64,000 nt of DNA from Candidatus Buchananbacteria bacterium (GTDB taxonomy: Bacteria; Patescibacteriota; Patescibacteriia; 2-01-FULL-39-33), in assembly GCA_041666945.1 (NCBI GenBank), contig JBAYFY010000001.1:182627-246626 (forward strand), in the 5' to 3' direction. A model generated the notes under the pieces. That model worked only from the letters and a program-made list of their open reading frames with translations. It was not told the origin of the DNA and ran no database searches. The position numbers and the translations under genes are program-made. This document shows positions 45,529 to 59,486 of this stretch, piece after piece; position 1 is the stretch's first letter; every line of letters begins with the position of its first letter.

Positions 45529-46947
45529 TCAGAATTTCAGAACTTGCCAGCCGGCTTTGGCCTTCCTGGCCAATTCATCCCAAGATCTGACGGCGAGAAG
45601 CTTTTTGATGATGTATTTGGGGCGGCGATAGAAAGAGGCGTAGAATTTTCTCATTAGCGCCAGTAATTCGTCACGGGTAAAATTCTCCGTCCATAATGGC
45701 GGGATGAATTGCGCCGCAGGGTTGGCGGCGAATTCTCGCCAAACGTCGGTTTTTATTATGCCCTTTTCCAGCGCGAGAGCGTATAATTGAGTGCCGGGGA
45801 AAGGGGTGGTGATAGAGACGTTAATGTAATCCGGATCGAGTTTTTTGGCGAATTTTATGGTTTGCTTGATGTCATCAAGCGTTTCCGAGGGGTTGCCAAT
45901 CATAAAGTAGGCGAGGGTTTCAATACCCTCTTTTTTTGTCCAGCGGATCGCTTTTTCCACCATTTCCAGAGTGATGTCTTTCTTGAGCGCGTCAAGAATT
46001 TTTTGGGTTCCTGCTTCAACGCCGAAATGAATTCTTTGGCAACCGGCCATTTTAAGCAGATGGAGCAGTTCCTCATCAACCGTATTGACGCGAGCACGGA
46101 TATCCCAATTGATTTTTAATTTCCTGTTGATTATTTCGCGGCAGATATCTACTGTTCTTTGGCGATTAATGGTGAAAGTGTCGTCGTAAATGAATATTTC
46201 CTCAATGCCCATTTTTTTGATTTCTGCCATTTCATCAACAACGTTATTAGCGCTGCGGGCGCGGAAAACCTTGCCTAAATGCGGACGGTCGCAAAACAAG
46301 CAGCGGTAAGGGCAGCCGCGTGAAGTAAACATCGTGGTAACCGGCGATTTTTGCGCGATAATGGAAAAATATTTATCGTATTTTGTCAGCTGGCGAGCCG
46401 GAAAGGGCAATTCGTCCAAATTATTGATCAGTCCGCAATGCCCGGTGTTGATAATTTGCCCGTTAGATTTAAAAACTATGCCGGGGATAGTTTTTAATTT
46501 TTCCCGGTCATTGATATTATCAATTAATTCTTTGAACGGTTTTTCGCCTTCCCCCAAAATAATAAAATCCACGCCCGGCAAATTAATTGTTTCATCCGGG
46601 TATAAATTAGGATGAGCGCCGCCTAAAACAATCGGGGTATCGGGCAATGCCGCTTTGATTGATTTAATAATGGCCATAACGTCCAGAAGGACGAAGGTTA
46701 AAGCGGTTATCCCGATTATGTCCGGCTGGAATTCTTTGGCCAGGCGGCCGATCTCATCGTAACTTATGTTTTCTACGCCGCAATCCGCGATTTTAATCTC
46801 GCAGTCGTTGAATTTTTTTAAATAAGCGGCTAAGTAGAGGATCCCCAATGATGGCAGATAATCAATTTCTTTGTCGTAGATTTCCGGCTGATTGGCAGCA
46901 ATCGGCTGAAATTGAGCGGGGTTAATCAGTAATATTTTCTTGGTCAT
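45529..46947 (-). CDS. B12-binding domain radical SAM protein (class B)
   Basis: LPFPARQL; TSRGCPYRCLFC; GGAHPN, GEGEK. Confidence 0.85.
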   Translation of the reverse strand: MTKKILLINPAQFQPIAANQPEIYDKEIDYLPSLGILYLAAYLKKFNDCEIKIADCGVENISYDEIGRLAKEFQPDIIGITALTFVLLDVMAIIKSIKAALPDTPIVLGGAHPNLYPDETINLPGVDFIILGEGEKPFKELIDNINDREKLKTIPGIVFKSNGQIINTGHCGLINNLDELPFPARQLTKYDKYFSIIAQKSPVTTMFTSRGCPYRCLFCDRPHLGKVFRARSANNVVDEMAEIKKMGIEEIFIYDDTFTINRQRTVDICREIINRKLKINWDIRARVNTVDEELLHLLKMAGCQRIHFGVEAGTQKILDALKKDITLEMVEKAIRWTKKEGIETLAYFMIGNPSETLDDIKQTIKFAKKLDPDYINVSITTPFPGTQLYALALEKGIIKTDVWREFAANPAAQFIPPLWTENFTRDELLALMRKFYASFYRRPKYIIKKLLAVRSWDELARKAKAGWQVLKF

Positions 46948-46951
46948 AATT

Positions 46952-47953
46952 TTAGGGCAGATATTTCCTTAATTTGGGCCCGATTAAGGCAGTGATATTC
47001 AAGGGCAATAAGCGGTAGATTTTTGACGCATAACGCAAACAGGATTTTTGAGGCGTTTTAATTGTTTTTTGATCGGATGAGATAAGATAATAGGGCAGAG
47101 TGATGTTGCGGCAATTCCATTGGCTTTTGAATTTGGCCACGGGGGAGCCAATTTGCGATCGGCCGAGATCTATCTTTTTGATTTCCGGCCGGCAAGATTC
47201 CGCCATTATTCGCCAATATAAGTAATCGTTAAAATTAAAAGATTTTAGCTTGCGGTCAGAAGCGGCCCAGGGTATATGCAACGTGTTTTTATAAACAAAG
47301 GTTAAAGCGGCGGCGGCTATCTTATCGTTGTATTTAACGGCGCAGATAGCGCCGTCAAATTGTTTCAATATATCCGCAAAAAAACCGATTTTATGCGCCG
47401 GCGTGCCGTGTCGTTTCATTGATTTAAGATAAAGCAGATAGAAATCCGGCAGTAATTCCTTTTGTTTTAAATATTCCGGGTTGTACTTTTCCGCCTTGCG
47501 CACTTGGTTCCTGGCTTTTTTATCAATCCTTTTCCATAAATCATCCGCCGTAACTCCCAAATCTATCAATGAACATATGTTATCAATGTTCGGCGATGCT
47601 TGGCCCAGGCCCGTTTCTCTTGACTGGCGTAATTCGTACTTTTCTCCCTGATTCAGGGATCGGTTGATTAAATAATCATTAAATTCCTTTTTAGCCGATT
47701 CAGCGCCGACAAATCCCGCCCAATCGGTAAAGGGTAGCGAGATGAAATTTTTTTTGCCGGTTTTAAATAATGGCAAAATTCCGGTGATTGAATCCCGGTT
47801 ATCAATATTAATCAAATAATGATCTGCCAGGCCGTAATTGTCCCGGATAATTTTTCGCATTCCAATACTATGGGAGAAATTTGCTTGCTCCTGGGCGGTT
47901 AAGAAATCTTCCCAAGCTTGTTCCCGGTCTTTTGTTAATTCTTTAATGGCCAT
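46952..47953 (-). CDS. FemAB-like / GNAT-fold acyltransferase family protein (EPS-locus associated)
   Basis: Overall resemblance to FemAB-related proteins that pair with a CE4 deacetylase in EPS loci. Weak motif support only. Confidence 0.45.
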   Translation of the reverse strand: MAIKELTKDREQAWEDFLTAQEQANFSHSIGMRKIIRDNYGLADHYLINIDNRDSITGILPLFKTGKKNFISLPFTDWAGFVGAESAKKEFNDYLINRSLNQGEKYELRQSRETGLGQASPNIDNICSLIDLGVTADDLWKRIDKKARNQVRKAEKYNPEYLKQKELLPDFYLLYLKSMKRHGTPAHKIGFFADILKQFDGAICAVKYNDKIAAAALTFVYKNTLHIPWAASDRKLKSFNFNDYLYWRIMAESCRPEIKKIDLGRSQIGSPVAKFKSQWNCRNITLPYYLISSDQKTIKTPQKSCLRYASKIYRLLPLNITALIGPKLRKYLP

Positions 47954-48785
47954 GGCGCATTCTATATTGTTCTATGCTTTCAATGGAAAAATCGTCCAGC
48001 AATCGATTAAATTTATCCCAACCCCTTTTAACGCCGAAATACTTAAGGGTTTTTCGCCAACGGGGGATTTTTATATCCGGTATTGATTCGTCCAAATCCA
48101 TCAGATGGAAATAAAGCACAATCAATTCGTTTTTTGCGGCCTTTCTTTTCAGAAGATAGGAGAAAATCCTATAGGGCAACAAACGGAAATAAAAACCGCC
48201 CGATATCGGCCAGTTTATTCCGGCCTGGCGGAAGGTGGAAACAGGGTATTCCAGAAACGGTCCGGCAGTCAGCGGCGGATAGGGTTTAGTCGGCAGCGGT
48301 TTTGTCGGATCAGAAGAAAAGGCGAAATAACTTGAATCATAGATGAAATCGTTTTTTTCTAAAATTTCCCAGGCCCATTTGTTATCCTGATTGATTGAAA
48401 AATTAGGCGCTCTGAATCCCTTAGGTTCTTCACCGATCACGCGCAAAAATATCTCTTTTGATTTGTTAAGATCATTCTCAAATTCAGCGGGGCTTAAGCG
48501 ATTAATCGGCGTATGATTGAGGCCATGCAAGCCGATTTCGTGGCCGACGGCCTTAATCGCCTTCAGTAAATCGGGGAAGCGATCCATCAGCTCGGCTAAG
48601 ACAAAGAAAGTCGCGTTGGCACCGGCAGAATCGCCCAGCCGGGATAAAATTTTTTCCAAAAGAACCGTATTGAGCGGCGGGGTGTCAGCTTGATTTCCGG
48701 ACAGGTATTTTTCCAGGAATTTGCTTGAGTGCCAGTACTCCAAATCGAAAGAAAGGATAATTTTAGGTTTATTGACATCAGTCAT
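47943..48785 (-). CDS. polysaccharide deacetylase family protein (CE4-like)
   Basis: ILSFDLEYWHS N-terminus; HGLNH. Confidence 0.65.
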   Translation of the reverse strand: MTDVNKPKIILSFDLEYWHSSKFLEKYLSGNQADTPPLNTVLLEKILSRLGDSAGANATFFVLAELMDRFPDLLKAIKAVGHEIGLHGLNHTPINRLSPAEFENDLNKSKEIFLRVIGEEPKGFRAPNFSINQDNKWAWEILEKNDFIYDSSYFAFSSDPTKPLPTKPYPPLTAGPFLEYPVSTFRQAGINWPISGGFYFRLLPYRIFSYLLKRKAAKNELIVLYFHLMDLDESIPDIKIPRWRKTLKYFGVKRGWDKFNRLLDDFSIESIEQYRMRHGH

Positions 48786-49473
48786 GCGGATTGTTTAATG
48801 ATGATTTTTCAAATAAGACGTTCGCGTCCAAACCCAAAAGAGAGCTTAAGTTGGTTTGATCCAGATAACGCATAACCGGAAAAGCCCACAATGGCGTTTT
48901 ATTGGGCGGAATCATGGCATCAATGAAAGTTTTTGCCGGCCGCAAGCCGGCCGCTTCGCCCAGGCCCTTAAGATAGGTTAATGAAAAGTCCAGTCCGCCT
49001 AATTCTTCCCGATTTAACAGGGAGAATGCCATTACAGCTGGATTCTTGCCGTTCGGTTCGCATAAAAACACATGCTTTTTTGCCACCCTGGTCATTTCTT
49101 TTACGGCCTTAGTCCTATCTTCTTTATTCATGTGATGAAGCAACGCGCTGCAGGTGACCAGATCAAAAGAATCATCCGGAAACGGTATTTCAGTTACCGA
49201 GGCGACCATTTTTCGCGGATTGGGATTATTGTCAATCATTTCTTTTGAGTAATCAATTCCCAGACAGTCCACCCCAAAGACATTGGTTAGAGCTTTTTGA
49301 AAAAAACCATTGCCGCAGCCGCAGTCAATAATACTGCCGATATTATCCGGCAGCAGATTTTTTAATTTTTTTGCTTTGTCTTGGAAAATGTAACTTACAA
49401 TCGGATGTTCTGGAGAACGGCGGGAAGATTTGTTTTGATTCCAGAATTTTTCTTGCAGATCTTCAGTTGGCAT
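48778..49473 (-). CDS. class I SAM-dependent methyltransferase
   Basis: IIDCGCGNGFF; LLHHMNKED. Confidence 0.75.
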   Translation of the reverse strand: MPTEDLQEKFWNQNKSSRRSPEHPIVSYIFQDKAKKLKNLLPDNIGSIIDCGCGNGFFQKALTNVFGVDCLGIDYSKEMIDNNPNPRKMVASVTEIPFPDDSFDLVTCSALLHHMNKEDRTKAVKEMTRVAKKHVFLCEPNGKNPAVMAFSLLNREELGGLDFSLTYLKGLGEAAGLRPAKTFIDAMIPPNKTPLWAFPVMRYLDQTNLSSLLGLDANVLFEKSSLNNPHD

Positions 49474-49487
49474 AAAAATTTAATGTT

Positions 49488-50414
49488 TCATTGGCGATTA
49501 TTAATCTCTCTTCTTAGGGCGGAAATCTGATCGGCAATCAAGCCGAAAAAGAAAATCAGTATTGAAGATAACGATATTAATACCGTGCTGGCGCTGATTC
49601 TGCCTTGATTAAGAATATCAAAGATCAATAAACTTCCGCCCAAGAGGAACAATAGCAAGCCAATGGGCAAAAATATTCTTAAGGGCGAGAAAAGCATGAT
49701 TAAACGCAGAATTAAAAATAAGTAAGTTATAAATTCCCTCGGTTTAACCATGCTTTGCCCGCTTTCTCTTTTGTTTATTTGAATGGGTATGAATTTAACA
49801 TTCAGGCCTTCACGCAAAAAGGCGAACAGGGTGGTGGTTGAGCAAGAAAAGCCATTAGGCAAAATATGAGTGAATCTTAAGAATTCTTTCTTCTTTATCA
49901 ACCTTAAACCGCAATTGAAATCGGCTATCTTTTTACCCAATAAATAAATGGCCAGCAAGTGGATTAATTTTTTACCCGGTTGGCGAATCCAGGGTCCTTG
50001 ATAGCCCATTCGTTCGCCCGATATCAAATCGAAATTTTCCGTATAAACCAGCATTCTTTTGATGTCTTCGGCCTGATGCTGGCCGTCAGCGTCAAAAAAC
50101 ACCAGCCAGTCATATTGAGCGTTCTTGGCCCCGGTTTTTAAACTGGCGCCATAGCCCTTATTGTAAGGATGATTAATCGTCTTTATCCTGTCATCTTGCT
50201 TTAATATTTCTCCGCTCTGATCCGTTGAACCGTCGTTAACGACAATAATTTCGTGGATTATTTGATTTCCAATCAATTCTTTGGTTAAGGAATCAATAAC
50301 CTTGGGCAGGGCTTCGCCGTCGTTAAAATTAGGAATGATTATTGATAATGCCGGAAATGTATTCATAATTATCGCTATTATTTGGTCTCTATTGGCCTCG
50401 GCCGCCCAGAACAA
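49488..50414 (-). CDS. GT2 polyprenyl-phosphate sugar synthase with C-terminal TM helices (GtrB/ArnC-like)
   Basis: SIIIPNFND, VVNDGSTDQS, DADGQHQ. Two C-terminal TMs. Confidence 0.85.
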   Translation of the reverse strand: MFWAAEANRDQIIAIIMNTFPALSIIIPNFNDGEALPKVIDSLTKELIGNQIIHEIIVVNDGSTDQSGEILKQDDRIKTINHPYNKGYGASLKTGAKNAQYDWLVFFDADGQHQAEDIKRMLVYTENFDLISGERMGYQGPWIRQPGKKLIHLLAIYLLGKKIADFNCGLRLIKKKEFLRFTHILPNGFSCSTTTLFAFLREGLNVKFIPIQINKRESGQSMVKPREFITYLFLILRLIMLFSPLRIFLPIGLLLFLLGGSLLIFDILNQGRISASTVLISLSSILIFFFGLIADQISALRREINNRQ

Positions 50415-51738
50415 CCCTGATGGTTTTTAGGGCAATGCTTAAATCAAGAAGCGGGGAACGATTTTTGACGTAATATAAGTCGTATTTGATTTTTTCCACC
50501 GTTTCTTCTTTAGAACCGCCGTAAGACGGGCCCATCAATTGCGCCCAGCCGGTTAATCCCGGTTTAACCAAGAGCCGCTCGCTGTAAAAGGGGATTTCTT
50601 GGGACAAGGATTGGATAAATTCCGGCCGCTCCGGCCTGGGACCGATTAATGACATTTCACCGCGCAGAACATTAAGCAATTGGGGAACCTCGTCCAATCG
50701 GGTTTTTCTCATTATCCGGCCGAAGCGGGTAACGCGGGCATCGTTTTTGGTCGCCCATTGAGCGCCATTTTTTTCCGCGTCCCGAACCATTGAGCGGAAT
50801 TTTTTGGCCAGAAATTCCTTGCCATTCTTGCCCACTCTGATTTGCCGAAAAATTATCGGGCCGGGGCTTTCCAATTTAATGATTAAAGCGATAAGAGGCA
50901 CAAGCGGCGCCGTCACCATCAAGCCGATGACGGCTAAAATGATATCTATTAGTCGCTTTAACAGCTCGTATGATTTTTTGGAATTTTCAGTTAAGTTCTC
51001 CAAAAACCAACCCAGCTCAATTGACTCTATCGGCACTTTCTGGGTGATGGTTTCATAAAAATCAGTCAGCCGGTGCACATCAATGCCCAGCGACAGGCAA
51101 TCAAATATTTTTTTGGCCGTGGCGGCGTCGGTATGCAAGCTATTGTCGGTGATAACAATGTCAATATTATTGTCCAGGCAATATTTTTTCAGATCTTCCG
51201 GCGCCCGTTCAAGCAATGTAGCCACGTAACCTAATTGCGGCCGGCGGACTATTTCTTTCATTAGATTTTCGGCTAAACTGTTTTGCCCGATGATTAAGAT
51301 ATAGTTAGCTATTTGCGGCGATTTGATTAAGCCGTAAAAAATTCTGCGCCAAGAAAAAATGAAAATAAAGGTAATGATCAAATCAATGATTAAAACTTTC
51401 TGCGGCTTGATGGCGGGGAAAAAAGGAGCCAGAAAATAAAAAGCGAACACCGCGATAATGCCGTTGATTATCGTGGCCCTGAATAAGACGGAAAACAGAG
51501 AGAAATTATTGTAACTGGTTTTTAGATCGTAAAAATCGCAGATGTAAAAAACCAACAGCCATAAGGCAAAAATAAAAGTCAGAGCCCGGTAATGAATCTG
51601 CCAAGAATTGGCATCAAAACCCGAGCCGTAGCGAATCCAAAGAGTCAGCCAAAGCGCCAGATAAAGGCAGGCAATATCGCCTAAAATTAGAAGTAATTTT
51701 TTGGTTTTTAGGATAAGGCCGGTCATAATTCCAGTCAA
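50389..51738 (-). CDS. polyprenyl-phosphate hexose-1-phosphate transferase (WbaP/sugar transferase family), priming enzyme
   Basis: Five N-terminal TMs. C-terminal bacterial sugar transferase domain PGPIIFRQIRVGKNGKEF...DEVPQLLNVLRGEMSLIGPRP. Confidence 0.85.
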   Translation of the reverse strand: MTGIMTGLILKTKKLLLILGDIACLYLALWLTLWIRYGSGFDANSWQIHYRALTFIFALWLLVFYICDFYDLKTSYNNFSLFSVLFRATIINGIIAVFAFYFLAPFFPAIKPQKVLIIDLIITFIFIFSWRRIFYGLIKSPQIANYILIIGQNSLAENLMKEIVRRPQLGYVATLLERAPEDLKKYCLDNNIDIVITDNSLHTDAATAKKIFDCLSLGIDVHRLTDFYETITQKVPIESIELGWFLENLTENSKKSYELLKRLIDIILAVIGLMVTAPLVPLIALIIKLESPGPIIFRQIRVGKNGKEFLAKKFRSMVRDAEKNGAQWATKNDARVTRFGRIMRKTRLDEVPQLLNVLRGEMSLIGPRPERPEFIQSLSQEIPFYSERLLVKPGLTGWAQLMGPSYGGSKEETVEKIKYDLYYVKNRSPLLDLSIALKTIRVVLGGRGQ

Positions 51739-51782
51739 TTAACAGAACTATTTATACCATATTTAGATGAAAAAAACAAGTT

Positions 51783-51809
51783 TTGACTTAATTTAATTTA
51801 TGTTATAAT
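51783..51809 (+). promoter_or_regulatory. sigma70-like promoter for the GtrA/UXS/GT2 array
   Basis: TTGACT (51783-51788), then a 15-nt spacer, then TATAAT (51804-51809); about 28 nt upstream of the 51837 start. Confidence 0.45.
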
Positions 51810-51836
51810 GAAATAGGGTTAAATGCCCCGATTTTT

Positions 51837-52265
51837 ATGTTAAGCATGATTAAAGAAAAATTTTGCCAACTGCCGTTTTTCCGCCGGCCAATTTTCAGGC
51901 AATTCATCAAATTTTGCCTTGTCGGCGCTTCTAATTTTTTTATTGATTTTTCAGTGTATTTGCTTTTTACGCGTTTATTCGGCTTGCATTACCTTCCCGC
52001 CTCGGTGATTTCTTTCGTTGTCGCCGTAACCTGGAGCTTTGAATGGAATCGCAAGTGGACTTTCCGTTATCGCAACGAGGGTTTGAGATGGCAATATATT
52101 AAATTTTTTATTGCCAATATCATCAGCTTGTCGCTGAATCTTGGTCTTTTGAGTTTATTGATTGAATTGGTCCATATCCCTGATTTGTGGGCCAAAGCCG
52201 TTTCCTCGCTTATAGTCGCCGTCTTTAATTTCAGTTTGAACCGCTTTTGGACTTTTAAAAGATAG
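51837..52265 (+). CDS. GtrA family membrane protein
   Basis: 142 aa, 4 TMs. FIKFCLVGASNFFIDFSVYLLF is the GtrA signature. Confidence 0.8.
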   Translation: MLSMIKEKFCQLPFFRRPIFRQFIKFCLVGASNFFIDFSVYLLFTRLFGLHYLPASVISFVVAVTWSFEWNRKWTFRYRNEGLRWQYIKFFIANIISLSLNLGLLSLLIELVHIPDLWAKAVSSLIVAVFNFSLNRFWTFKR

Positions 52266-52338
52266 TTGTTCGGTAAGGGCAAATCATGTTATAATTTATG
52301 TATGAACTAAATATCCATTTAAGGAATAAATTAAATCT

Positions 52339-53379
52339 ATGCCAGTCAAAAAGGCGATATTTGACAAAAAAAACATCTTAGTCGTTGGCGGAGCCGGATT
52401 TGTCGGTTCCAATCTTTGCGATGAATTGGTCAAAACCGCCAAAGTCATCTGCTTGGATAACTTTATTACCGGCGATTCCGCCAATATCTCTCATTTATTG
52501 GCCAATCCCGATTTTAAATTTATTAACCACGACATTATAAACCCCATTAATCTGGAGAGCCGTCCGGAATTGGCCGAATTCAAAGTTGCTTTCCAGGGAG
52601 TGCAAGAAATTTATTTTTTGGCCTCGCCGACTTCACCCAAGGCCTATGTCGCTCATCCGGTAGAAACGCTGTTGGTTAACTCGGTCGGTCTGCGTCACGC
52701 GTTGGATTTGGCGGTTAAGTATGAGGCCTCGATTTTATTCGCCTCCGCTCCGGCGGTTTACGGCACCGGCACCGGCCCCATGCCGATTAAAGAGGATTAT
52801 ATCGGTCCGGTTGACCAGCTTGGCCCGCGGGCTTGTTACGCCGAAGCCAAGCGTTTCGGCGAGTCGCTGGTTAATAATTACCGTTTGGCTTATAAGCTTA
52901 ATACGAAAATCGCCAGAATTTTCAATTGTTACGGCCCGCGGCTGGGATTAACCGACGGCCGCATGATTCCGGAAATGATTTCTGCCGCTTACAGCGGAAC
53001 GCCGCTTACCATTTACGGCCGCGAAAGCGAGTTCGCTTCTTATTTTTATATCACTGATTTGATCCGCGGATTAATGAAACTCATGGAGAGCGGGGAAAGC
53101 GGTCCGGTGAATATGGCGTCAGAATGGAAAATGGGCGTAACGGAAATCGCCAAAAAGATAATCGCCTTGACCAACTCCGTATCCGCGATTGAATTTAAGG
53201 ATCGGCCGGCTCATTTTGAGGCCCAACCCTTGGCCAATATCTCTTTAGCTAAAGAAAAATTGGGCTGGTTTCCGATAATCCTAATGGATGAAGGCCTGCA
53301 AAAAACCATTGATTACTTAAGCGCGCAAAAGGGGATAAGGCGGCCTGAAGCAACTCTTAGTTCCGTCCAGACGGTTTAA
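52339..53379 (+). CDS. NAD-dependent epimerase/dehydratase (extended SDR), probably UDP-glucuronate decarboxylase-like
   Basis: ILVVGGAGFVGSNLCDELV; catalytic YAEAK (YxxxK). Confidence 0.75.
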   Translation: MPVKKAIFDKKNILVVGGAGFVGSNLCDELVKTAKVICLDNFITGDSANISHLLANPDFKFINHDIINPINLESRPELAEFKVAFQGVQEIYFLASPTSPKAYVAHPVETLLVNSVGLRHALDLAVKYEASILFASAPAVYGTGTGPMPIKEDYIGPVDQLGPRACYAEAKRFGESLVNNYRLAYKLNTKIARIFNCYGPRLGLTDGRMIPEMISAAYSGTPLTIYGRESEFASYFYITDLIRGLMKLMESGESGPVNMASEWKMGVTEIAKKIIALTNSVSAIEFKDRPAHFEAQPLANISLAKEKLGWFPIILMDEGLQKTIDYLSAQKGIRRPEATLSSVQTV

Positions 53380-53383
53380 ACTT

Positions 53384-54046
53384 ATGAAATTGGCGATAAT
53401 TATCCCGGCTTACAATGAAGCGGAAAAAATAAGCTCTGTTGTTTTAGCGGTCAAAGCCGCTCAGCCCGAATCCTTGATTATAGTTGTGGATGACGGTTCC
53501 GGCGATGCGACGGCTGAACTGGCCGCTTCGGCCGGCGCTGATGTTTTACGGCATAAAATCAACCGCGGGCAGGGAGCGGCGCTTAAGACCGGCGTAGAAT
53601 ACGCTTTTCGCCGCTACATTGACGCGGCTGTTTTTTTTGACGCGGACGGGCAGATGGAGCCGTCGGAGATTAAATTGCTGGCAGCCGAACTGTCCCAAGG
53701 TTATGATGTGGTGCTGGGTTCCAGAAATTTGGGCCGCGCCCTGAATATGCCGCTGGCTAAAAAAATCGCCAAGAAATTAGCTTTGTATTTCACCCGCTTT
53801 ACCACTGGTTTGAAATTGACTGATACGCACAACGGTTTTCAGGCCTGGACCAGCGGATCGTTAAAACGCTTGAATTTAGGTCAAGATCGTCAGGCCTATG
53901 CCAGCGAGGTGTTGCACGAAATTAAGCGCCTTAAGTTAAAATACTGCGAGGTGCCGGTGACGATTCGTTATACCGGCTATTCCATAAAAAAGGGCCAAAG
54001 CATCTGGAATGCGTTTGGGATTTTGTGGGACCTGTTAATAAAGTAA
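53384..54046 (+). CDS. GT2 polyprenyl-phosphate sugar synthase (DPM1-like)
   Basis: AIIIPAYNE, VVDDGSGDAT, DADGQ. Confidence 0.8.
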   Translation: MKLAIIIPAYNEAEKISSVVLAVKAAQPESLIIVVDDGSGDATAELAASAGADVLRHKINRGQGAALKTGVEYAFRRYIDAAVFFDADGQMEPSEIKLLAAELSQGYDVVLGSRNLGRALNMPLAKKIAKKLALYFTRFTTGLKLTDTHNGFQAWTSGSLKRLNLGQDRQAYASEVLHEIKRLKLKYCEVPVTIRYTGYSIKKGQSIWNAFGILWDLLIK

Positions 54047-54100
54047 CAGGTAATAAGTAACAAGTAATTTTTAATAATTTATTACATATTACGTATTACT
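54043..54100. repeat. inverted heptamer-array element (GTAAYAN)x3 ... (NTRTTAC)x3, copy 1
   Basis: AAGTAACAGGTAATAAGTAACAAGTAA, then tttttaataat, then TTATTACATATTACGTATTAC; immediately after the GT2 stop codon. Confidence 0.6.
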
Positions 54101-54113
54101 ATTTATAAACAAT

Positions 54114-54449
54114 ATGCTTATACAAATCATCCTGCTTATTATTATCGCCGTTATTGTTTTACGCTTAGCGGTTAAATACCGCGCCAAGGAATTGCCCGGC
54201 AAGCAATTCATCAGTTGGCTTGTTTTTTGGCTGGCGGCTTCCGCGGCCGTGATTTGGCCCCAGTTGACAGTTAATATTGCCAATCGCGTGGGTGTGGGTC
54301 GCGGTTCTGACTTGGTAGTTTACTTGGCCTTGATATTTTTGTTTTATATCCTCTTCCGCTTGTTTTTGCGCATTGAGAAACTGGAGAAAAACTTGACTAA
54401 AGTCGCCCGGGCTGAAGCCCTAAAAGAAAAAAATGATTCAACCGAATAA
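54114..54449 (+). CDS. DUF2304-like small membrane protein
   Basis: 111 aa, three TMs plus a C-terminal amphipathic helix. Commonly paired with GT2 genes. Confidence 0.55.
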   Translation: MLIQIILLIIIAVIVLRLAVKYRAKELPGKQFISWLVFWLAASAAVIWPQLTVNIANRVGVGRGSDLVVYLALIFLFYILFRLFLRIEKLEKNLTKVARAEALKEKNDSTE

Positions 54450-55485
54450 AAAGATCGTCATTGGCATCGTAACTTATAATTCCCGCCATAAAATCGCCGA
54501 TTGCCTTAACAGCGTTAATCGGCAGAATTATCCGCGCGAATTGGTGCAGGTGGCGGTAGTTGATAACAACAGCAATGACTCAACTAAAGATTATTTGGCT
54601 GAAGCTTGGCCGCAAGTGACGGTTATTGCCAATAACAATAATACCGGTTTTGCCGCGGCCAATAATCAGATCTATGCCTTCGCCAAAGGCCAAGCCGATT
54701 ATCTGGTCCTGCTTAATGATGACACGATAGTAGAGCCCAATTGGCTGACACGACTGGTTAACGCCGCCTTAAGCGATGATAAAATTGCCGCCGTTCAGTC
54801 AAAATTATTGCTTTATCCGGAAAAGAATTTGGTCAATAGCTTGGGCAACTCCATCCAGTTTTTGGGTTTCGCTTTTTGCAATCACTATCGCGAGCCCGAT
54901 AATCATGATTACACCGCCTTGTTTGATTTGCCTTACGCTTCCGGCGCCGCCGTGTTGTTAAAACTTTCAGCGCTTGAAGAAATTGGTTTATTTGATGAAA
55001 AATTATTCATGTATCACGAAGACGTGGACTTGGGCTGGCGCTTGCGGCTTTTGGGTTACCGCGCGGTCATTGATCCGCTCTCCGTCGTTTATCACAAATA
55101 TAACTATTCCAAAGCCAAGTACAAGTTCTACTACATGGATCGCAATCGCTGGATCGTCCTGCTGAAGAACTACCGCTTAGCGACTATTATATTATTAGCG
55201 CCCATGCTATTGATAATGGAATTCGGCATTACGCTTTATTCTATTAAAAACGGCTGGTTTAAGGAAAAACTTAAGGGCTGGGCCTGGCTGATAAAAAATC
55301 TCGGCTATGTTTTGAGCGAACGGAAGAAAATTCAAGGCCTGCGGCAAACATCCGACCGTAAAATTTTGAATTTGTTTGTCGGTTCAATCACCAATCAGGA
55401 AGTGGAAAATAAATTATTGTCTTGGATAGCCAATCCTCTAATGGAGATTTATTTTCTTTTAATCCGCTTGGTTGTTTTTTGGTAA
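54433..55485 (+). CDS. glycosyltransferase family 2
   Basis: VIGIVTYNS, VAVVDNNSNDST, LNDD; C-terminal membrane-associated tail. Confidence 0.8.
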   Translation: MIQPNKKIVIGIVTYNSRHKIADCLNSVNRQNYPRELVQVAVVDNNSNDSTKDYLAEAWPQVTVIANNNNTGFAAANNQIYAFAKGQADYLVLLNDDTIVEPNWLTRLVNAALSDDKIAAVQSKLLLYPEKNLVNSLGNSIQFLGFAFCNHYREPDNHDYTALFDLPYASGAAVLLKLSALEEIGLFDEKLFMYHEDVDLGWRLRLLGYRAVIDPLSVVYHKYNYSKAKYKFYYMDRNRWIVLLKNYRLATIILLAPMLLIMEFGITLYSIKNGWFKEKLKGWAWLIKNLGYVLSERKKIQGLRQTSDRKILNLFVGSITNQEVENKLLSWIANPLMEIYFLLIRLVVFW

Positions 55486-55633
55486 CGGCCGGACTTGATT
55501 TTTTTTTAATTTTACATTATAATTCACCCTGTTAAATGCGCTAAAGCGCAATTCGCTTTGGGCGAGTTATTTAACGGGTTAACAAAATTCACGGTATTTT
55601 ATTCAAATATCGTGATTTAGGAAGGGACAAAAT

Positions 55634-56413
55634 ATGGATCAAATTACGCAACCGATCAAAAGAATGGGGGCCGGCAAGATTGCCGTTTACATTGTTTTGA
55701 TCTTGGCACTTTCTGCCGTCGCCATTATTTCCATTGTGCGCGATCGCATTGTCAACTACCCGCAGAATTCGGTTTCCGTCACCGGCCAAGGCAAAGTCAC
55801 TTATCAGCCGGACATCGCCATTATCACCTTGGGCGTACAAATTGACAAGGTGGCCAAACCGGATGAAGCTCTCAATCAGTTGAATGATAAAATCACCAAG
55901 ATTGTTGCGGCGATTAAGGCCTTGGGCATAGCGACGGAAGATATTGTCACGCAGAGTTATTCCCTGTATCCGCAATATGATTATGTCAATAACGTCAGCA
56001 GCTTATCCGGCTATAGCGCCAATCAGCAGATTACCGTCAAAGCGCGGGATATCAAAGTTAGTCCGGATAAAACCAGCAAGGTGATTGCCGAAGCCAGTAA
56101 GGCCGGCGCCAATCAGGTTTTGGGAATTTCTTTTGACGTTTCCAATTTAGATGATCTTAAGCAGCAAGCCAGGGTTGAGGCCTTGGGCGACGCCAATAAT
56201 AAAGCGATCAAAATGGCTTCGGCGGCTGAAGTGAAGTTGGGAGAGATTACCGGCTGGTGGGAGAATTATCTCCAGGGTCCGGGGCAGTCGCAGAATTATT
56301 ACGGTGGCAGCGATAAGGGCGGCCTGGGCGGCGGCGGCAGTGTCAGCGCCACAATTCCGACCGGCAGTTATGAGATTGTTATGGAGATGAATGTAAATTA
56401 TAAATTAAAATAA
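55634..56413 (+). CDS. SIMPL-domain (DUF541/BP26-like) secreted protein
   Basis: N-terminal TM/signal; SVSVTGQGKVTYQPDIAIITLGVQ; C-terminal Gly-rich region. Good SD GGAAGGG. Confidence 0.65.
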   Translation: MDQITQPIKRMGAGKIAVYIVLILALSAVAIISIVRDRIVNYPQNSVSVTGQGKVTYQPDIAIITLGVQIDKVAKPDEALNQLNDKITKIVAAIKALGIATEDIVTQSYSLYPQYDYVNNVSSLSGYSANQQITVKARDIKVSPDKTSKVIAEASKAGANQVLGISFDVSNLDDLKQQARVEALGDANNKAIKMASAAEVKLGEITGWWENYLQGPGQSQNYYGGSDKGGLGGGGSVSATIPTGSYEIVMEMNVNYKLK

Positions 56414-56420
56414 ATTCCTC

Positions 56421-56446
56421 GGGGGCTGTTACCAAACAGCCCCTTT
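56421..56446 (+). terminator. intrinsic terminator hairpin
   Basis: GGGGGCTGTT-acc-AAACAGCCCC, then TTT. Confidence 0.5.
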
Positions 56447-56448
56447 AA

Positions 56449-56519
56449 GGGCCTATAGTCTAGTGGTACGACGCTACATTCGCATTGTAGAGGCGGCGGT
56501 TCGATTCCGCCTAGGTCCA
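56449..56519 (+). tRNA. tRNA-Ala (anticodon CGC)
   Basis: Cloverleaf GGGCCTA/TAGGTCC with the G3:U70 Ala identity pair. Anticodon loop TTCGCAT; T-loop TTCGATT. Confidence 0.8.
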
Positions 56520-56570
56520 CTGCTTCGCTAAAGCTACGCAGTGCAGGTATTTTAAAAGATTAATTTAAAT

Positions 56571-56647
<77 letters not shown>

Positions 56648-56654
56648 TTTATTT

Positions 56655-57398
56655 ATGTCTAATCTTATTTGGGCGTTGCTGGCGGTCGCGTTAATCAGCG
56701 TTATGTCTTTTTCCGGCGCCTTGGCTCTGATATTAAACGATCACCGGCTCAAAAATTTTTTGATTTATTTCGTGTCTTTCGCGGCCGGATCAATGATGGG
56801 CGCGGCCTTTTTTCATTTATTGCCCGAGGTTTTGAACTCTATCCCGCCGCTGGAAGCGTTTATTGCCGTACTCGTCGGCTTTTCCCTCTTTTTTATTTTG
56901 GAAAGATTCCTGCGTTGGCATCATTGCCATGAAGAGTCCTGCGAAACCCACGACCATTTGGGCTGGCTTAATTTGATCGGCGACGGCTTCCATAACATGA
57001 TTGACGGCATGATTATTTTTGCCTCTTTTTTAGGCGGTCCGGTTCTGGGCATACCGGTAACTTTGTCCATAATCCTTCACGAAATTCCGCAGGAATTGGG
57101 TGATTTCGGGGTTTTATTGTATTCCGGATTCACCAAAAAACGCGCTTTGTTTTATAATTTGCTTTCCGCCTGCGCGGCTTTTATCGGCGTTTTGCTGGGC
57201 TGGATGTTTTATCGGCAAAGCGAAATGCTTTTTTCTTTGCTCCTGCCTTTTGCCGCCGGCGGGTTTATTTACATCGCCGCCTCGGATTTGATCCCCGAGT
57301 TGCATAAAGACAGGAATTTGACTCGCGCTGTTTTTTCTTACATTTTGTTTATTTTAGCTTTAGCGTTTATGTATTTGATGAAAATATTGTTTGAATAA
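56655..57398 (+). CDS. ZIP family metal (Zn/Fe) transporter
   Basis: 8 TMs; HEIPQELGDFGVLL ZIP signature; His-rich loop HHCHEESCETHDH. Confidence 0.85.
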   Translation: MSNLIWALLAVALISVMSFSGALALILNDHRLKNFLIYFVSFAAGSMMGAAFFHLLPEVLNSIPPLEAFIAVLVGFSLFFILERFLRWHHCHEESCETHDHLGWLNLIGDGFHNMIDGMIIFASFLGGPVLGIPVTLSIILHEIPQELGDFGVLLYSGFTKKRALFYNLLSACAAFIGVLLGWMFYRQSEMLFSLLLPFAAGGFIYIAASDLIPELHKDRNLTRAVFSYILFILALAFMYLMKILFE

Positions 57399-57643
57399 CC
57401 CTCCTGTCATCCTCTTGAATAATCCCCACTGTCATCCTCTTGAATAATCCCCACTGTCATCCTCGCGGAGGCGAGGATCCAAGAGGTTAAAATTATATAA
57501 TAATGGATTCCCGCCTACGCGGGAATGACGGATAAAAAATTGAAACAGCAGGAACAATGCGGAGGCGAGGATCCAAGAGGTTAAAATTATATAATAATGG
57601 ATTCCCGCCTACGCGGGAATGACGGATAAAAAATTGAAACAGT
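57389..57643. repeat. composite repeat cluster: about 2.5 tandem copies of a 25-bp unit, then two identical 84-bp direct repeats separated by 10 bp
   Basis: Two perfect copies of the 25-bp unit CTGTCATCCTCTTGAATAATCCCCA (57404-57428 and 57429-57453); a degenerate half-copy in the ZIP 3' end (57389-57403) and a partial copy at 57454-57464. 84-bp unit GCGGAGGCGAGGATCC...ATTGAAACAG at 57465-57548 and 57559-57642, 100% identical. Internal palindromes ATCCTCGC-gga-GGCGAGGAT and TTCCCGC-ctac-GCGGGAA. Confidence 0.85.
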
Positions 57644-57901
57644 AATACTCGATCGGAATGGCAATAAAAAGGATGCTCAAGCTGGGCATGACTTATAATT
57701 ATTACTATCTGTTTTGTCTATTAAATATAAAAATTATCTAAAATTATATAAAAAGTGATAATCGCTAATTATAAAAATAGATAAATCTATTGACAAAATA
57801 TTTAAGGTATGATATGACATTCACAGCACGTTACATTGGCAGGCCTTAGGCCGGGGACTATTTCTCTGGTAGGAGGTAAGCCGCAATATGGGAGAAAAAC
57901 C

Positions 57902-58600
57902 ATGAAAAAGAGTGAGTTCTTGAGCGCGTTGGGTGTTATGTGGGAAATTTGGAAGTCGCTGACGGATGAAATTTTGTCTTTAGGCGGCGACGATGAGGCG
58001 ATCCGCCTCATTAAGACGGATGACGGTCTGCGGCGGAGAATCGCCGAATTGGTGATGGCTAAAGCGCGTGGCGTCAAGGTTGCCGCCAAGCAAATTGGCG
58101 CTGATATGTCCGCCGGCAGCTACGATGTAATCGTTGACTTTAGCCAGAATCTTGAGCAGATGATCGCCGCCGGTCGCTATAATAGAGCGAGCTCGGACAT
58201 CAACGCCAATAATTTTTCGCTAAACGGAGCGGGTAAACGTAGAGTCAAAGTGGAATTGCTCCACTTTAATCAGAGTTTAGAAAATGGTGACCAAATCTTC
58301 GCCAAACTAAAAGAAGTCAATGATTGGCTGGCGCAACAAGGAGTGAAGTATCGCTACCGTTTTGCCCAAATAGAAGAGCTTCTGGCTCTGGGCGCGACTC
58401 AACCCGAGTTGCAACGGCAACTCCTGATTGCTGCTTTGGGTTCAATTTGGCACCATTATGGCAACCGCGACTTCGTTTGCCTTGGCGGGAATATTATAGA
58501 GCGCCACCTGCTCTTGGGTTCTCTTAAGGGTCGCTTCTCCGGTGACTACTGGCGGTTCGCTGTTGTCCGCGAGGTTTTTGATGACACCTTGAAACCTTGA
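57902..58600 (+). CDS. hypothetical protein, paralog A of a duplicated pair
   Basis: Shares a C-terminal module with 58631..59248 (SDINA..F..NG.GK, ELLALGA.QPELQRQ.LIAALGSIW, YWRFAVVR). The ORF track starts at 57836; MKKSEF at 57902 is more plausible. Confidence 0.45.
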   Translation: MKKSEFLSALGVMWEIWKSLTDEILSLGGDDEAIRLIKTDDGLRRRIAELVMAKARGVKVAAKQIGADMSAGSYDVIVDFSQNLEQMIAAGRYNRASSDINANNFSLNGAGKRRVKVELLHFNQSLENGDQIFAKLKEVNDWLAQQGVKYRYRFAQIEELLALGATQPELQRQLLIAALGSIWHHYGNRDFVCLGGNIIERHLLLGSLKGRFSGDYWRFAVVREVFDDTLKP

Positions 58601-58630
58601 ATCAGAAAAAATCGGGAAAAGGAGAATAGC

Positions 58631-59248
58631 ATGAAAACTGCAAGTAAAACTGGAAATAGAAATAAGAAAGTCGGAACCGGGATTATCACCGCTATTACCG
58701 TCGCAGTTGTAAGCCAAGGCGGAAAAGCCGAGGACTTGACTGCGGTTGTCGGGCACAATGAGTTGCTCAAGCAATTAGCCGCGGCCGTCATTGAGCTTTC
58801 CCGTAAGATCATCCAACTCGTCATTGACTATCGTATGACTTTGGCGCAGATGATCATCGCTGGCAAGTATGACCGGGTGAATTCGGACATCAACGCCGAA
58901 CATTTCCCGATCAATGGGAAGGGCAAGAAGGCGGTCGACATTGAACTCTGGCATCCGAACAGATATTTTAAAAACGGCGACGAAGTGATTGCCGAGCTGA
59001 AAAAGTCCAAATATGGTTATCGTTTCGCCACCCTGCCGGAACTTTTGGCTCTGGGCGCGGCTCAACCCGAGTTGCAACGGCAATTCCTGATTGCCGCTTT
59101 GGGTTCAATTTGGCGCCGCACCGGCTACCGCCGTTTCGCCTACCTCCACGGGTCTGACGCTATGCGCGACCTGGACCTGGGCTTTCTCGGGGGTGCTTTC
59201 CACGGCTATTGGCGCTTTGCGGTTGTCCGCGATCCTGCCTGCCGGTAG
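58631..59248 (+). CDS. hypothetical protein, paralog B of the duplicated pair
   Basis: SD AAGGAGA 7 nt upstream. N-terminal TM. Conserved C-terminal module as in paralog A. Confidence 0.5.
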   Translation: MKTASKTGNRNKKVGTGIITAITVAVVSQGGKAEDLTAVVGHNELLKQLAAAVIELSRKIIQLVIDYRMTLAQMIIAGKYDRVNSDINAEHFPINGKGKKAVDIELWHPNRYFKNGDEVIAELKKSKYGYRFATLPELLALGAAQPELQRQFLIAALGSIWRRTGYRRFAYLHGSDAMRDLDLGFLGGAFHGYWRFAVVRDPACR

Positions 59249-59285
59249 GTAAGTAATTTTGATTAGACATTGACCTCTGAATTTT

Positions 59286-59318
59286 CCGCGCGATAACCCT
59301 TATCGCGCGGCTTTTATT
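59286..59318 (+). terminator. intrinsic terminator
   Basis: CCGCGCGATAA-ccc-TTATCGCGCGG, then CTTTTATTT. Confidence 0.65.
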
Positions 59319-59486
59319 TGATAAAGCTCATAAAAAATTGGCACGGAATTGGAAAGTATGTTATACTGTATATATTGCGGGGTTAATTGCCCGGCCAAAA
59401 TAGATTGGCAGGTATGATACTGGTGAAATTTCAATAAATTTACTTATTAAATCAATTTTTATAAATTTTTATTTAACAGGGTAAAT

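Follow-up and report, generated by a model that had tools for sequence, protein, structure and literature searches.

A repeat cluster of NTS/dRS3/SRM-type hairpins behind a ZIP transporter gene in a Candidatus Buchananbacteria genome

By their sequence, the palindromes of a repeat cluster located immediately downstream of a ZIP metal transporter gene in a Candidatus Buchananbacteria genome belong to the known NTS/dRS3/SRM family of CGTC-tagged REPs. The cluster was studied in a stretch of 64,000 nucleotides (hereafter, the window), and its hairpin doublet reproduces, in shortened form, the 3' flank that ssn (small GIY-YIG nuclease) cassettes have in other Patescibacteria. With a probability of roughly three in four, we propose that the cluster is an SRM array devoid of its own ssn gene, in which a doublet derived from an ssn-cassette flank was inserted and then locally duplicated, the neighbouring SfLAP gene being lost.

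Results

All the palindromes of the cluster are copies of one motif

The features of the region are listed below, with positions relative to the first nucleotide of the window.

56655-57398, + strand: ZIP metal transporter gene (Pfam PF02535), intact; its last 8 nt (TTGAATAA) start tandem unit 1
57391-57414, 57415-57439 and 57440-57464, + strand: three 25-bp tandem units (sequence reading, Tandem Repeats Finder)
57455-57482, + strand: H1, SRM-like hairpin TGTCATCCTCGCGGAGGCGAGGATCCAA
57464/57465, no strand: breakpoint between CCTC and GCGG, in the 5' arm of H1
57465-57548, + strand: 84-bp copy 1, composed of the H1 3' part (57465-57480), an AT-rich 24-nt spacer (57481-57504), H2 and an 18-nt tail
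57503-57530, - strand: H2, CGTCATTCCCGCGTAGGCGGGAATCCAT, an exact match to the SRM expression
57549-57558, + strand: 10 nt between the 84-bp copies, CAGGAACAAT; the counterpart in the related locus L257, right after its module, is TAGGAGCAAT
57559-57642, + strand: 84-bp copy 2, which opens with the H1 3' part only (57559-57574), without the 5' arm
57597-57624, - strand: H3, same sequence as H2
57643-57739, no strand: AT-rich 97-bp stretch that, with the cluster, fills the place of SfLAP in relatives; homology to locus L122 resumes at 57740
57902-58600 (232 aa) and 58631-59248 (205 aa), + strand: two paralogous genes; a single 255-aa gene in relatives
59330-59411, + strand: remnant of a LUD-domain gene, the CCG and LUD genes present in relatives having been lost by deletion

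The 25-bp tandem units reported in a preliminary description of this DNA are present as three units: Tandem Repeats Finder returned a 25-bp period at 57391-57464 with 3.0 copies, 94% matches and the unit TTGAATAATCCCCACTGTCATCCTC, the same array amounting to about 2.4 copies in the rotation chosen in that description. Each unit joins the end of ZIP and its flank (TTGAATAA and a C-rich stretch of 6–7 nt) to the first 9 nt of H1 (GTCATCCTC). Unit 1 begins within the last codons of ZIP (TTG TTT GAA TAA, stop codon at 57396-57398), and the units indeed hold the last 8 nt of the gene, as had been claimed. Likewise, the two 84-bp direct repeats exist as described, with 100% identity and 10 bp between them. 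The 25-bp array ends where the first 84-bp repeat starts, and this breakpoint (57464/57465) is common to both local duplications, with no microhomology on either side as read from the sequence. The 10 nt that separate the two 84-bp copies are probably native flank, judging from their counterpart in L257; a nested self-insertion at the breakpoint was dropped for this reason. As had also been noted, the cluster does not have CRISPR architecture: its copies are contiguous and in tandem, whereas a CRISPR alternates identical repeats, regularly placed, with unique spacers of about equal length, and no cas genes were found.

The perfect identity of the 84-bp copies might be taken to mean that the repeat units were spuriously duplicated during assembly, and an independent assembly breaks 1.6 kb downstream (59213-59227). 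However, the whole cluster is reproduced base for base in a separate ENA megahit contig; contig names begin with k141, which we take to denote a final k-mer of 141, in which case it exceeds both repeat periods; and a module related to the 84-bp unit is found in single copy in two other metagenomes. An assembly artefact is therefore very improbable.

The palindromes of the cluster are all built on one motif composed of GTCAT, an 8-bp stem, a GNAG loop, the return stem and CC. The H1 palindrome (ATCCTCGC-GGAG-GCGAGGAT, 57459-57478) pairs 57459-57466 with 57471-57478 around the loop GGAG, whereas that of H2 and H3 (ATTCCCGC-CTAC-GCGGGAAT) is found at 57508-57527 and 57602-57621; H1 is a compensatory stem variant of H2 (CCTCGC/GCGAGG versus TCCCGC/GCGGGA). 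When folded as single-stranded DNA, the H1 and H2/H3 palindromes yielded 8-bp stems with energies of -8.7 and -8.9 kcal/mol and z-scores of -3.3 and -3.5, respectively. Both palindromes had been noted in the preliminary description; their common motif family had been missed.

A 25-nt version of the motif has 3 matches in the window against 0.00 expected from shuffles, and the published SRM expression, HGTCWYN(0-2)YYVSBRHN(0-5)WNVSBRGN(0-2)RNCYNB, has 3 matches against 0.125 expected by chance. H2 and H3 satisfy this expression and differ from the Neisseria NTS consensus CGTCATTCCCGCGMAVGCGGGAATCYRG at 2 of 28 positions, while H1 misses the strict expression at the second loop base only. The 5' tag is a full CGTC in H2 and H3 and TGTC in H1, the L257 counterpart of H1 carrying CGTC. 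The C that follows the palindrome, reported as critical in the Ssn/NTS paper (PMC11893778), is present in H1, H2 and H3. About 2 kb past the window, the same genome carries two more copies (L127), which match the NTS consensus exactly; these two copies, as well as H2 and H3 (57507 and 57601), conform to the dRS3 definition ATTCCC-N8-GGGAAT, which H1 (ATCCTC...GAGGAT) does not fit. Two SRM loci were seen in the ~83 kb of this genome, and the motif is not a high-copy family there. Within the cluster, H1 (+), the AT-rich spacer and H2 (-) form a dimer with the tags outside ("HH").

The doublet corresponds to the 3' flank of ssn cassettes

Ssn-related motifs are substrates of the SsnA-family GIY-YIG single-strand DNA nucleases (Nat Commun 2025;16:2388, PMC11893778). 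The ssn genes encode a single GIY-YIG domain of the cd10448 type and often have the motif on their flanks. Small GIY-YIG ORFs adjoin motif matches at 7 IMG/VR loci and 5 GTDB loci, and profile scoring placed these ORFs above the PF01541 cut-off. In L199, L251 and L252, the TAA of ssn is followed, after ~10 nt, by an H1-like hairpin (+), then by a spacer and by H2 (-); the H1-spacer-H2 doublet of the window has the order of this ssn-cassette 3' flank in other Patescibacteria. Around H2, the L199 flank and window positions 57504-57539 are identical at 36 of 36 nt; by eye, the beginning of the L199 spacer (~18 nt) looks similar to the spacers of the window and of L257 (e.g., GCAATAATG). An H1-like hairpin directly follows the 3' end of ssn in L199 as well as L251, and lies directly upstream of ssn in L254-L256. 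Two such cassettes (P0125 and P0129) come from the ENA sample and metagenome of the window itself, and a metagenome scan for the TAATCCCCAC...H1 junction had the L199 contig as its sole match.

Across ~83 kb of this genome (window and flanks), neither tblastn nor an HMM profile built from 120 homologues detected an ssn gene or a remnant of one; the GIY-YIG tblastn probes were validated by their retrieval of the real ORFs adjoining the motif, and the positive controls of the profile scored 168–178 bits. The nuclease may be absent here, and the array may be no more than an inert relic. The Patescibacterial Ssn-like protein had no match when its sequence was searched against the PDB.

The ZIP locus exists in three states

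Comparison of orthologous loci, a check put forward in the preliminary description, showed that the cluster is absent from L122 and L124, in which SfLAP directly follows ZIP; in relatives without the hairpin, the ZIP-SfLAP spacer is 10–31 bp long. L257 carries one doublet, as a single ~100-bp module between ZIP and SfLAP, and SfLAP is kept. In the window, the doublet is enlarged and SfLAP is gone. The first 84-bp copy and the single-copy module of L257 share 92% identity, and no other copy of the 84-bp unit was found in the ~83 kb of this genome. As no target-site duplication is visible around the doublet, it is from the three site states that we infer its insertion. The earlier proposal of a small non-autonomous mobile element fits these loci. 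The locus constitutes a natural series (empty, single doublet, expanded array with gene loss), which suggests that in Patescibacteria the hairpins become inserted and afterwards favour rearrangements nearby.

All 30 homologues inspected share the ...FE* C-terminus of ZIP. An origin of the TTGAATAA of the tandem units from the 3' end of ssn (the ssn gene of L253 ends with ...TTTGAATAA) was considered, and is not separable from an origin from the ZIP end. The latter is preferred because ...FE* is native to ZIP and because in L257 the TAA of ZIP is followed directly by the flank and H1.

The same site states suggest mobility, and a REPIN- or MITE-like element could have been moved by a transposase other than Ssn (RAYT/Y1, or an IS110/Piv-type recombinase acting on dRS3-like palindromes), the Ssn link being incidental. 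Indeed, the doublet as a whole can fold into a single long hairpin (-20 kcal/mol, z -5.5), as in REPINs, and dRS3 is a known phage-recombinase target in Neisseria. However, Pfam revealed no Y1, IS110 or other transposase among the window ORFs or flanking loci, and the survey by Di Nocera et al. (PMC3733652) identified no transposase specific to CGTC REPs. Moreover, the doublet is homologous to the ssn-cassette 3' flank, and neither further copies of the 84-bp unit in the ~83 kb nor a target-site duplication accompany it. We consider this explanation unlikely.

A role at the RNA level, the hairpins acting in the 3' untranslated region of the ZIP mRNA as terminators or 3'-end stabilisers, or as a small RNA, is also improbable. 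H1 begins 57 nt after the ZIP stop codon and the first half-copy 7 nt after it, the hairpin is stable, REPs have been proposed as mRNA stabilisers and transcription terminators (PMC3733652), and a terminator scan scored H2 and H3 as terminator-like, on the - strand only. However, none of the three hairpins has a T-run behind it on the + strand, and the promoter and terminator scan gave nothing convincing for ZIP. Only tRNAs reached the gathering threshold of Rfam 15; the best hit in the region was FtrB, with 27.6 bits against a cut-off of 66, and a search at E<=10 over 57200-58000 returned sub-threshold noise only. Furthermore, relatives manage with the hairpin-free 10–31-bp spacer, and Neisseria SsnA acts on single-stranded DNA and is inactive on RNA (PMC11893778). 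The structured RNA or riboregulator suggested in the preliminary description is therefore disfavoured by the Rfam results and by the substrate of the related Neisseria enzyme. In a genome-collection scan (TATCC and NTS), more than 10 phyla among the matches listed carry the exact motif, whatever the neighbouring genes; such a distribution argues for recognition by a protein rather than for a local RNA role.

Half-hairpin units recur upstream of hairpins in other genomes

We refer to the 25-bp tandem units as a "5' half-hairpin stutter", a name of our own. Tandem 5' half-hairpins upstream of a full hairpin recur across phyla and in many other genomes: among 443 motifs, solo 5' half-hairpins were found 49 times upstream and 4 times downstream, a strongly one-sided distribution. 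The stutter copies break off after nt 8–13, with periods mostly of 16–28 and three outliers at 35–38; the values for the window are a break after nt 9 and a period of 25. The main text of the Ssn paper (PMC11893778) makes no mention of such units. Stalling or a break at the hairpin, and then re-annealing that slips along the C/T-rich 5' flank, are the probable source of the stutter. The reported cut site of Neisseria SsnA lies 3 nt upstream of NTS (PMC11893778), whereas the breakpoint of the window lies in the 5' arm, so the duplications are not simply readable as Ssn cuts. If the stutter does reflect nuclease action, it would offer a simple genomic read-out of Ssn activity in unculturable organisms.

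The rearranged region starts past ZIP

The duplicated gene pair that had been noticed downstream of the cluster consists of paralogues, the 232-aa and 205-aa products sharing 43% identity; neither matches a family in Pfam, PADLOC or NCBIfam. On the other side, tRNA-Ala and tRNA-Val do lie upstream of the cluster, as the preliminary description stated, at a distance of ~750 bp and with ZIP in between. That description had further raised a scar of site-specific recombination near a tRNA integration hotspot. A recombination scar is in keeping with the position of the cluster where SfLAP was lost and with the single breakpoint of the two duplications, but site-specific integration at a tRNA hotspot found no support. 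The proximity of the two tRNA genes and a downstream gene content unlike that of relatives could be explained by an attachment-site scar left by integrase-mediated insertion of an island. However, the same tRNAs precede ZIP in syntenic, cluster-less relatives, the tRNA 3' ends share no sequence with the repeats, and the rearranged region starts past ZIP and not at a tRNA. Pfam searches of all but two short ORFs of the window (a few through precomputed matches only) detected no transposase or integrase, and none was seen in the ~83 kb of this genome. The attachment-site explanation is thus close to refuted.

Discussion

The repeat cluster, formerly unexplained, now has a specific and testable identity within a family of Ssn-substrate hairpins. 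In our preferred scenario, a gene-less insert of ~100 bp would have entered the ZIP-SfLAP spacer before the lineage of L257 and that of the window separated. Three changes would have followed in the latter: reiteration of the segment comprising the ZIP end, its flank and the first 9 nt of H1, which gave the three 25-bp units; one further copying of everything from nt 10 of H1 through the tail, which gave the second 84-bp copy; and loss of SfLAP. Replication, repair or DNA uptake would expose single-stranded DNA, in which each copy would fold into an 8-bp hairpin; by analogy with the Neisseria system, Ssn would bind this hairpin and cut the strand reading GTCAT a few nt to its 5' side. Such cutting would make the site a hotspot of breakage and recombination. 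The sequences show the identity of the motif, its relationship to ssn cassettes, the three site states, the common breakpoint and the wide spread of the stutter; Ssn cutting in this organism and the mechanism of the duplications are what we infer.

A broader and rather doubtful hypothesis is that SRM doublets are miniature, Ssn-dependent partners, comparable to REPINs and their RAYTs, that spread among co-resident Patescibacteria, the polar stutter of many phyla being an in vivo footprint of repeated Ssn-dependent breakage at the hairpin. If so, such breaks would drive the loss and duplication of genes in the very small genomes of these bacteria, as exemplified by the loss of SfLAP and by the paralogue pair. 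As the kind of element is already known, the cluster is of moderate interest rather than a surprise.

Comparison with known systems

The cluster resembles REPIN-RAYT systems and BIMEs in having two inverted palindromic units able to form a long hairpin, in its clusters with tandem reiteration, and in being a non-autonomous element that presumably relies on a single-copy enzyme acting on single-stranded DNA. However, REPINs have a GTAG tag and an HUH/Y1 transposase, whereas the tag here is (C)GTC (the GTAG in the loop of H2 and H3 is not a terminal tag), and no RAYT or Y1_Tnp was present among the Pfam results for the window ORFs or flanks.

With dRS3 and NIME, the cluster shares the ATTCCC-N8-GGGAAT signature of H2 and H3, the alternation of GC-rich palindromes with short AT-rich spacers (24–44 nt), an array size that varies between related genomes, and an array-adjoining gene more diverged than its neighbours (61% versus 83–89% identity). 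NIME are defined by long dRS3 arrays flanking RS-element families of 19–214 bp at many loci; in contrast, the array of the window is tiny (three hairpins, with H1 outside the dRS3 definition) and occurs in another phylum, it has no RS-element families common to many loci, and its 84-bp unit is unique within ~83 kb. The resemblance to NIME is thus one of architecture only.

CGTC-tagged REPs are palindromic repeats of 20–40 bp with a terminal CGTC tag (PMC3733652), and the window elements share with them the tag, the palindromic body and the HH dimer, the tags-outside organisation that predominates among CGTC REPs (Di Nocera et al. 2013, PMC3733652). These REPs were described mainly in Alphaproteobacteria and other Proteobacteria, with no dedicated enzyme reported (PMC3733652), whereas the present case is in Patescibacteria and has a candidate partner enzyme family.

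Compared with NTS/SRM and SsnA (PMC11893778), the window array differs by its low copy number, by the lack of an ssn gene nearby or in the ~83 kb seen, by H1, a stem variant outside the strict expression, and by its host, a Candidatus Buchananbacteria MAG; the words "Patescibacteria" and "Candidatus" are absent from the main text of that paper. Nevertheless, the motif CGTCATTCCCGCG.AGGCGGGAATCC is found in both, with the same hairpin, the same oriented flanks and the same clustering in intergenic arrays, and small single-domain GIY-YIG genes flanked by the motif also exist in Patescibacteria.

The repeat cluster downstream of the ZIP gene is reproduced in a second assembly

The preliminary description had placed, downstream of the ZIP metal transporter gene (56655-57398, + strand), 25-bp tandem units seeded from the 3' end of the gene and followed by two 84-bp copies. 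Tandem Repeats Finder recovered the units at 57391-57464 (3.0 copies, 94% matches, unit TTGAATAATCCCCACTGTCATCCTC) together with a 94-bp period at 57465-57642, and a repeat finder confirmed the two 84-bp copies, 57465-57548 and 57559-57642, 100% identical and 10 bp apart. The first 25-bp unit does start within the 3' codons of ZIP (TTG TTT GAA TAA; stop codon at 57396-57398). Such repeats might be an assembly artefact; however, an independent ENA contig of 300.5 kb (ERZ27249449 k141_1081614) is identical to the window over 46655-59227 except for one base, at 59013, and the cluster thus stands in a second assembly as well. The independent assembly is interrupted further downstream, at a pair of paralogous genes, where k141_1081614 ends (59227) and k141_1019211 begins (59213, in the 3' end of the 205-aa paralogue). 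Strain heterogeneity at the paralogue pair may lie behind this break and the base difference at 59013.

The palindromes are copies of one oriented Ssn-related hairpin

The palindromes described earlier are present, not as separate elements but all as copies of one oriented motif, made up of GTCAT, the two arms of an 8-bp stem around a GNAG loop, and a final CC.

Hairpins of the repeat cluster
57456-57480, + strand: hairpin H1, GTCATCCTCGCGGAGGCGAGGATCC
57505-57529, - strand: hairpin H2, GTCATTCCCGCGTAGGCGGGAATCC
57599-57623, - strand: hairpin H3, GTCATTCCCGCGTAGGCGGGAATCC

Five positions differ between H1 and H2: four form two compensatory stem pairs and the fifth is the second loop base. A degenerate pattern covering both has 3 matches in the window versus 0.00 in shuffles. 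Folded as single-stranded DNA, the hairpins reach -8.7 and -8.9 kcal/mol (z-scores, -3.3 and -3.5), and the H1-H2 doublet can be folded as a single long hairpin (-20 kcal/mol, z -5.5). A further sequence, GTCATGCCCAGCTTGAGCATCC on the - strand at 57671-57692, combines the GTCAT head and the ATCC tail of the motif with a stem of only 4 bp; it may be a decayed copy, within a 97-bp stretch that stands in place of SfLAP, the gene following ZIP in relatives.

A full-text search with the stem sequence traced the motif to a study of the Ssn nucleases (Nat Commun 2025;16:2388; PMC11893778). There, the Neisseria Transformation Sequence (NTS), CGTCATTCCCGCGMAVGCGGGAATCYRG, includes the classical dRS3 repeat ATTCCC-N8-GGGAAT, a wider class is defined as the Ssn-related motif (SRM), and the motif usually flanks ssn genes. 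SsnA, which has 94 aa and a single GIY-YIG domain, binds to this hairpin and makes its cut in single-stranded DNA, 3 nt upstream; double-stranded DNA, RNA and the opposite strand are left uncut (PMC11893778). When the published SRM expression was coded as a test, H2 and H3 matched it exactly (chance expectation in the window, 0.125 matches) and H1 fell outside it, the second loop base being the sole failing position; H2 and H3 also conform to the dRS3 definition. The cluster itself has no ssn gene; it is a genuine array of NTS/dRS3-type Ssn-related hairpins in a Patescibacterium, and NCBI annotation assigns the ZIP protein to a Candidatus Buchananbacteria MAG. The structured RNA proposed earlier as an alternative is not supported: none of the Rfam families scored above threshold, and on the ZIP strand none of the hairpins is followed by a T-run.

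The 25-nt pattern occurs in at least 120 IMG/VR contigs with a G+C content of 0.39-0.72 (window, 43.8%). The 30-nt string formed by TATCC and the NTS, TATCCGTCATTCCCGCG.AGGCGGGAATCC, is exact in GTDB genomes (L131-L249) of more than 10 phyla among the matches listed, including Proteobacteria, Dehalococcoidia, Nitrospirota, Planctomycetota, Bacteroidota and Actinomycetota as well as Candidatus Roizmanbacteria and Candidatus Paceibacterota; among the same matches, some Dehalococcoidia chromosomes carry dozens of copies (e.g. OY282371.1). Such constancy of the string over this G+C range is unusual for a REP-type repeat. The same genome holds a second intergenic SRM array, ~2.0-2.2 kb past the right end of the window.

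Second array in the same genome
6837-6965 of L127: SRM array between a 595-aa gene and a HIT-family gene

Two of its hairpins are exact NTS copies with the same orientation; the third is split at the loop, where a 23-nt palindrome, CCTTGCCTGCCGGCAGGCAGG, has been inserted between the arms.

The cluster resembles the 3' flank of ssn cassettes

GIY-YIG probes found no ssn in the window; the same probes retrieved ~90-aa ORFs adjoining motif matches at 7 IMG/VR and 5 GTDB loci, and these ORFs score above the Pfam GIY-YIG cut-off. With a profile built from 120 homologues (controls at 168-178 bits), neither an ssn gene nor a remnant was found in ~83 kb of the genome. Homologues of the cassette Ssn protein are common in Patescibacteria, and the window's own ENA sample contains contigs with two of them, P0125 and P0129. 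Another homologue, P0202, has a predicted N-terminal extension (...VIPAKAGIQ...) that translates the NTS hairpin lying upstream; ORF calls evidently run on into such repeats.

In the cassettes of a Paceibacterota contig (L199) and of L251 and L252, an SRM (+), a second dRS3-like palindrome and ssn (97 aa, ending in TAA) are followed by ~10 nt, an H1-like hairpin (+), CGTCATCCTCGCGAATGCGGGGATCCAG, an AT-rich spacer of ~67 nt and H2 (-). The H1-like hairpin of L199 has T instead of the CG tag. The window has the same order, H1 (+), spacer and H2 (-), and is identical to L199 at 36/36 nt around H2. Compared by eye, the two spacers have stretches in common, GCAATAATG among them, which would fit the loss of an internal part of the spacer. 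From these similarities, the cluster appears to derive from the flank of an ssn cassette.

The 25-bp array and the 84-bp repeat share one breakpoint

One phosphodiester bond, 57464|57465 (CCTC|GCGG), marks both the end of the 25-bp array and the start of the 84-bp repeat; in H1 it lies six base pairs inside the 5' arm. Microhomology is absent on both sides of this bond, which differs from the cut site reported for Neisseria SsnA. The 60 nt on either side of each full motif were surveyed (443 motifs, 239 loci). The first 10 nt occurred as solo copies 49 times upstream versus 4 downstream, and solo 3' halves 7 versus 2. The arrays consist of one to five copies of [C/T-rich flank + 5' arm] and then a complete hairpin. 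Copies stop after motif nt 8-13 (mode 11; window, 9), with a period mostly of 16-28 nt and three outliers of 35-38 (window, 25). Such arrays often precede complete NTS/SRM hairpins in many phyla (L009, L103, L164, L191, L195 and ~35 other loci, beside 57391-57464 in the window); the 25-bp units are thus no peculiarity of the ZIP gene. The main text of the Ssn paper (PMC11893778) does not mention them. Since the C/T-rich flank is similar to the 5' arm, slipped re-annealing after a stall or break at the hairpin is a plausible origin of these arrays.

Gene order in relatives suggests insertion, expansion and gene loss

In the related loci L122 and L124 the gene order is SIMPL, tRNA-Ala, tRNA-Val, ZIP, SfLAP, a hypothetical gene (a 255-aa protein in L122, an unrelated acetyltransferase in L124), CCG, LUD and a thioredoxin-like gene, followed in L122 by TP-methylase and MetRS. 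ZIP of L122 is 83% identical to that of the window, and the ZIP-SfLAP spacers of L122 (31 bp) and L124 (10 bp) lack the motif. The tRNAs and ZIP are thus syntenic in relatives without the cluster, and no integrase or transposase was found among the window ORFs (Pfam), which argues against the tRNA integration hotspot put forward in the preliminary description. L257 and L258, from two other metagenomes (ZIP 83% identical), have a single module between ZIP and an intact SfLAP, ZIP-TAA-ttccccctgc-CGTCATCCTCGCGGAGGCGAGGATCC-24 nt-GGATTCCCGCCTGCGCGGGAACGACGG-tail, 92% identical to the window unit, with neither 25-bp units nor a second 84-bp copy at this site. The 10 nt between the 84-bp copies of the window, CAGGAACAAT, correspond to the L257 bases after the module, TAGGAGCAAT, and are probably native flank. 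In L259, a related population from the same ENA sample (ZIP 81% identical), a different 83-nt spacer (814-896, starting GCGCCCGTCATTAC...) may be a decayed hairpin; the ZIP-SfLAP spacer seems to be a recurrent small-insertion site.

The window lacks the SfLAP and CCG genes of the relatives. The CCG-LUD deletion area spans 59278-59411, with LUD reduced to a remnant at 59330-59411 (88% nucleotide identity to L122 14547-14598). In place of the 255-aa gene stand two paralogues, 57902-58600 and 58631-59248 (43% identical), neither with a match in Pfam, NCBIfam or PADLOC. Their single L122 orthologue is only 61% identical, versus 83-89% for the flanking genes, and the gene adjoining the array is therefore unusually diverged. 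Elsewhere, the window holds a very large glycan-biosynthesis cluster (~11680-46950), in which nine radical SAM genes of the B12-binding type and two others (one with SPASM and PMT_2 domains) are interspersed with many glycosyltransferases and methyltransferases.

In the simplest history of the locus, a gene-less doublet of ~100 bp would have been inserted and then expanded locally, before the neighbouring gene was lost. Of the mobile element or recombination scar suggested earlier, the link to the tRNAs falls, and what stands is a cluster that appears to have been inserted as a miniature doublet and expanded around a fixed breakpoint, with associated local gene loss.

Comparison with known repeat families

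The hairpin family is already known, and the cluster is a further case of it, in a Patescibacterium. An element of the RAYT/REPIN type would be another source of paired hairpins; however, RAYT-associated REPs carry a terminal GTAG tag whereas that of the window cluster is (C)GTC, and a Y1 transposase was not found among the ORFs of the window and its flanks. The same repeats were described by Di Nocera et al. (2013; PMC3733652) as CGTC-tagged REPs, with the CGTC-1 family equated with dRS3 and no dedicated transposase known. Dimers with the tags outside ("HH") predominate among them (PMC3733652), and H1 and H2 likewise form a tags-outside dimer.
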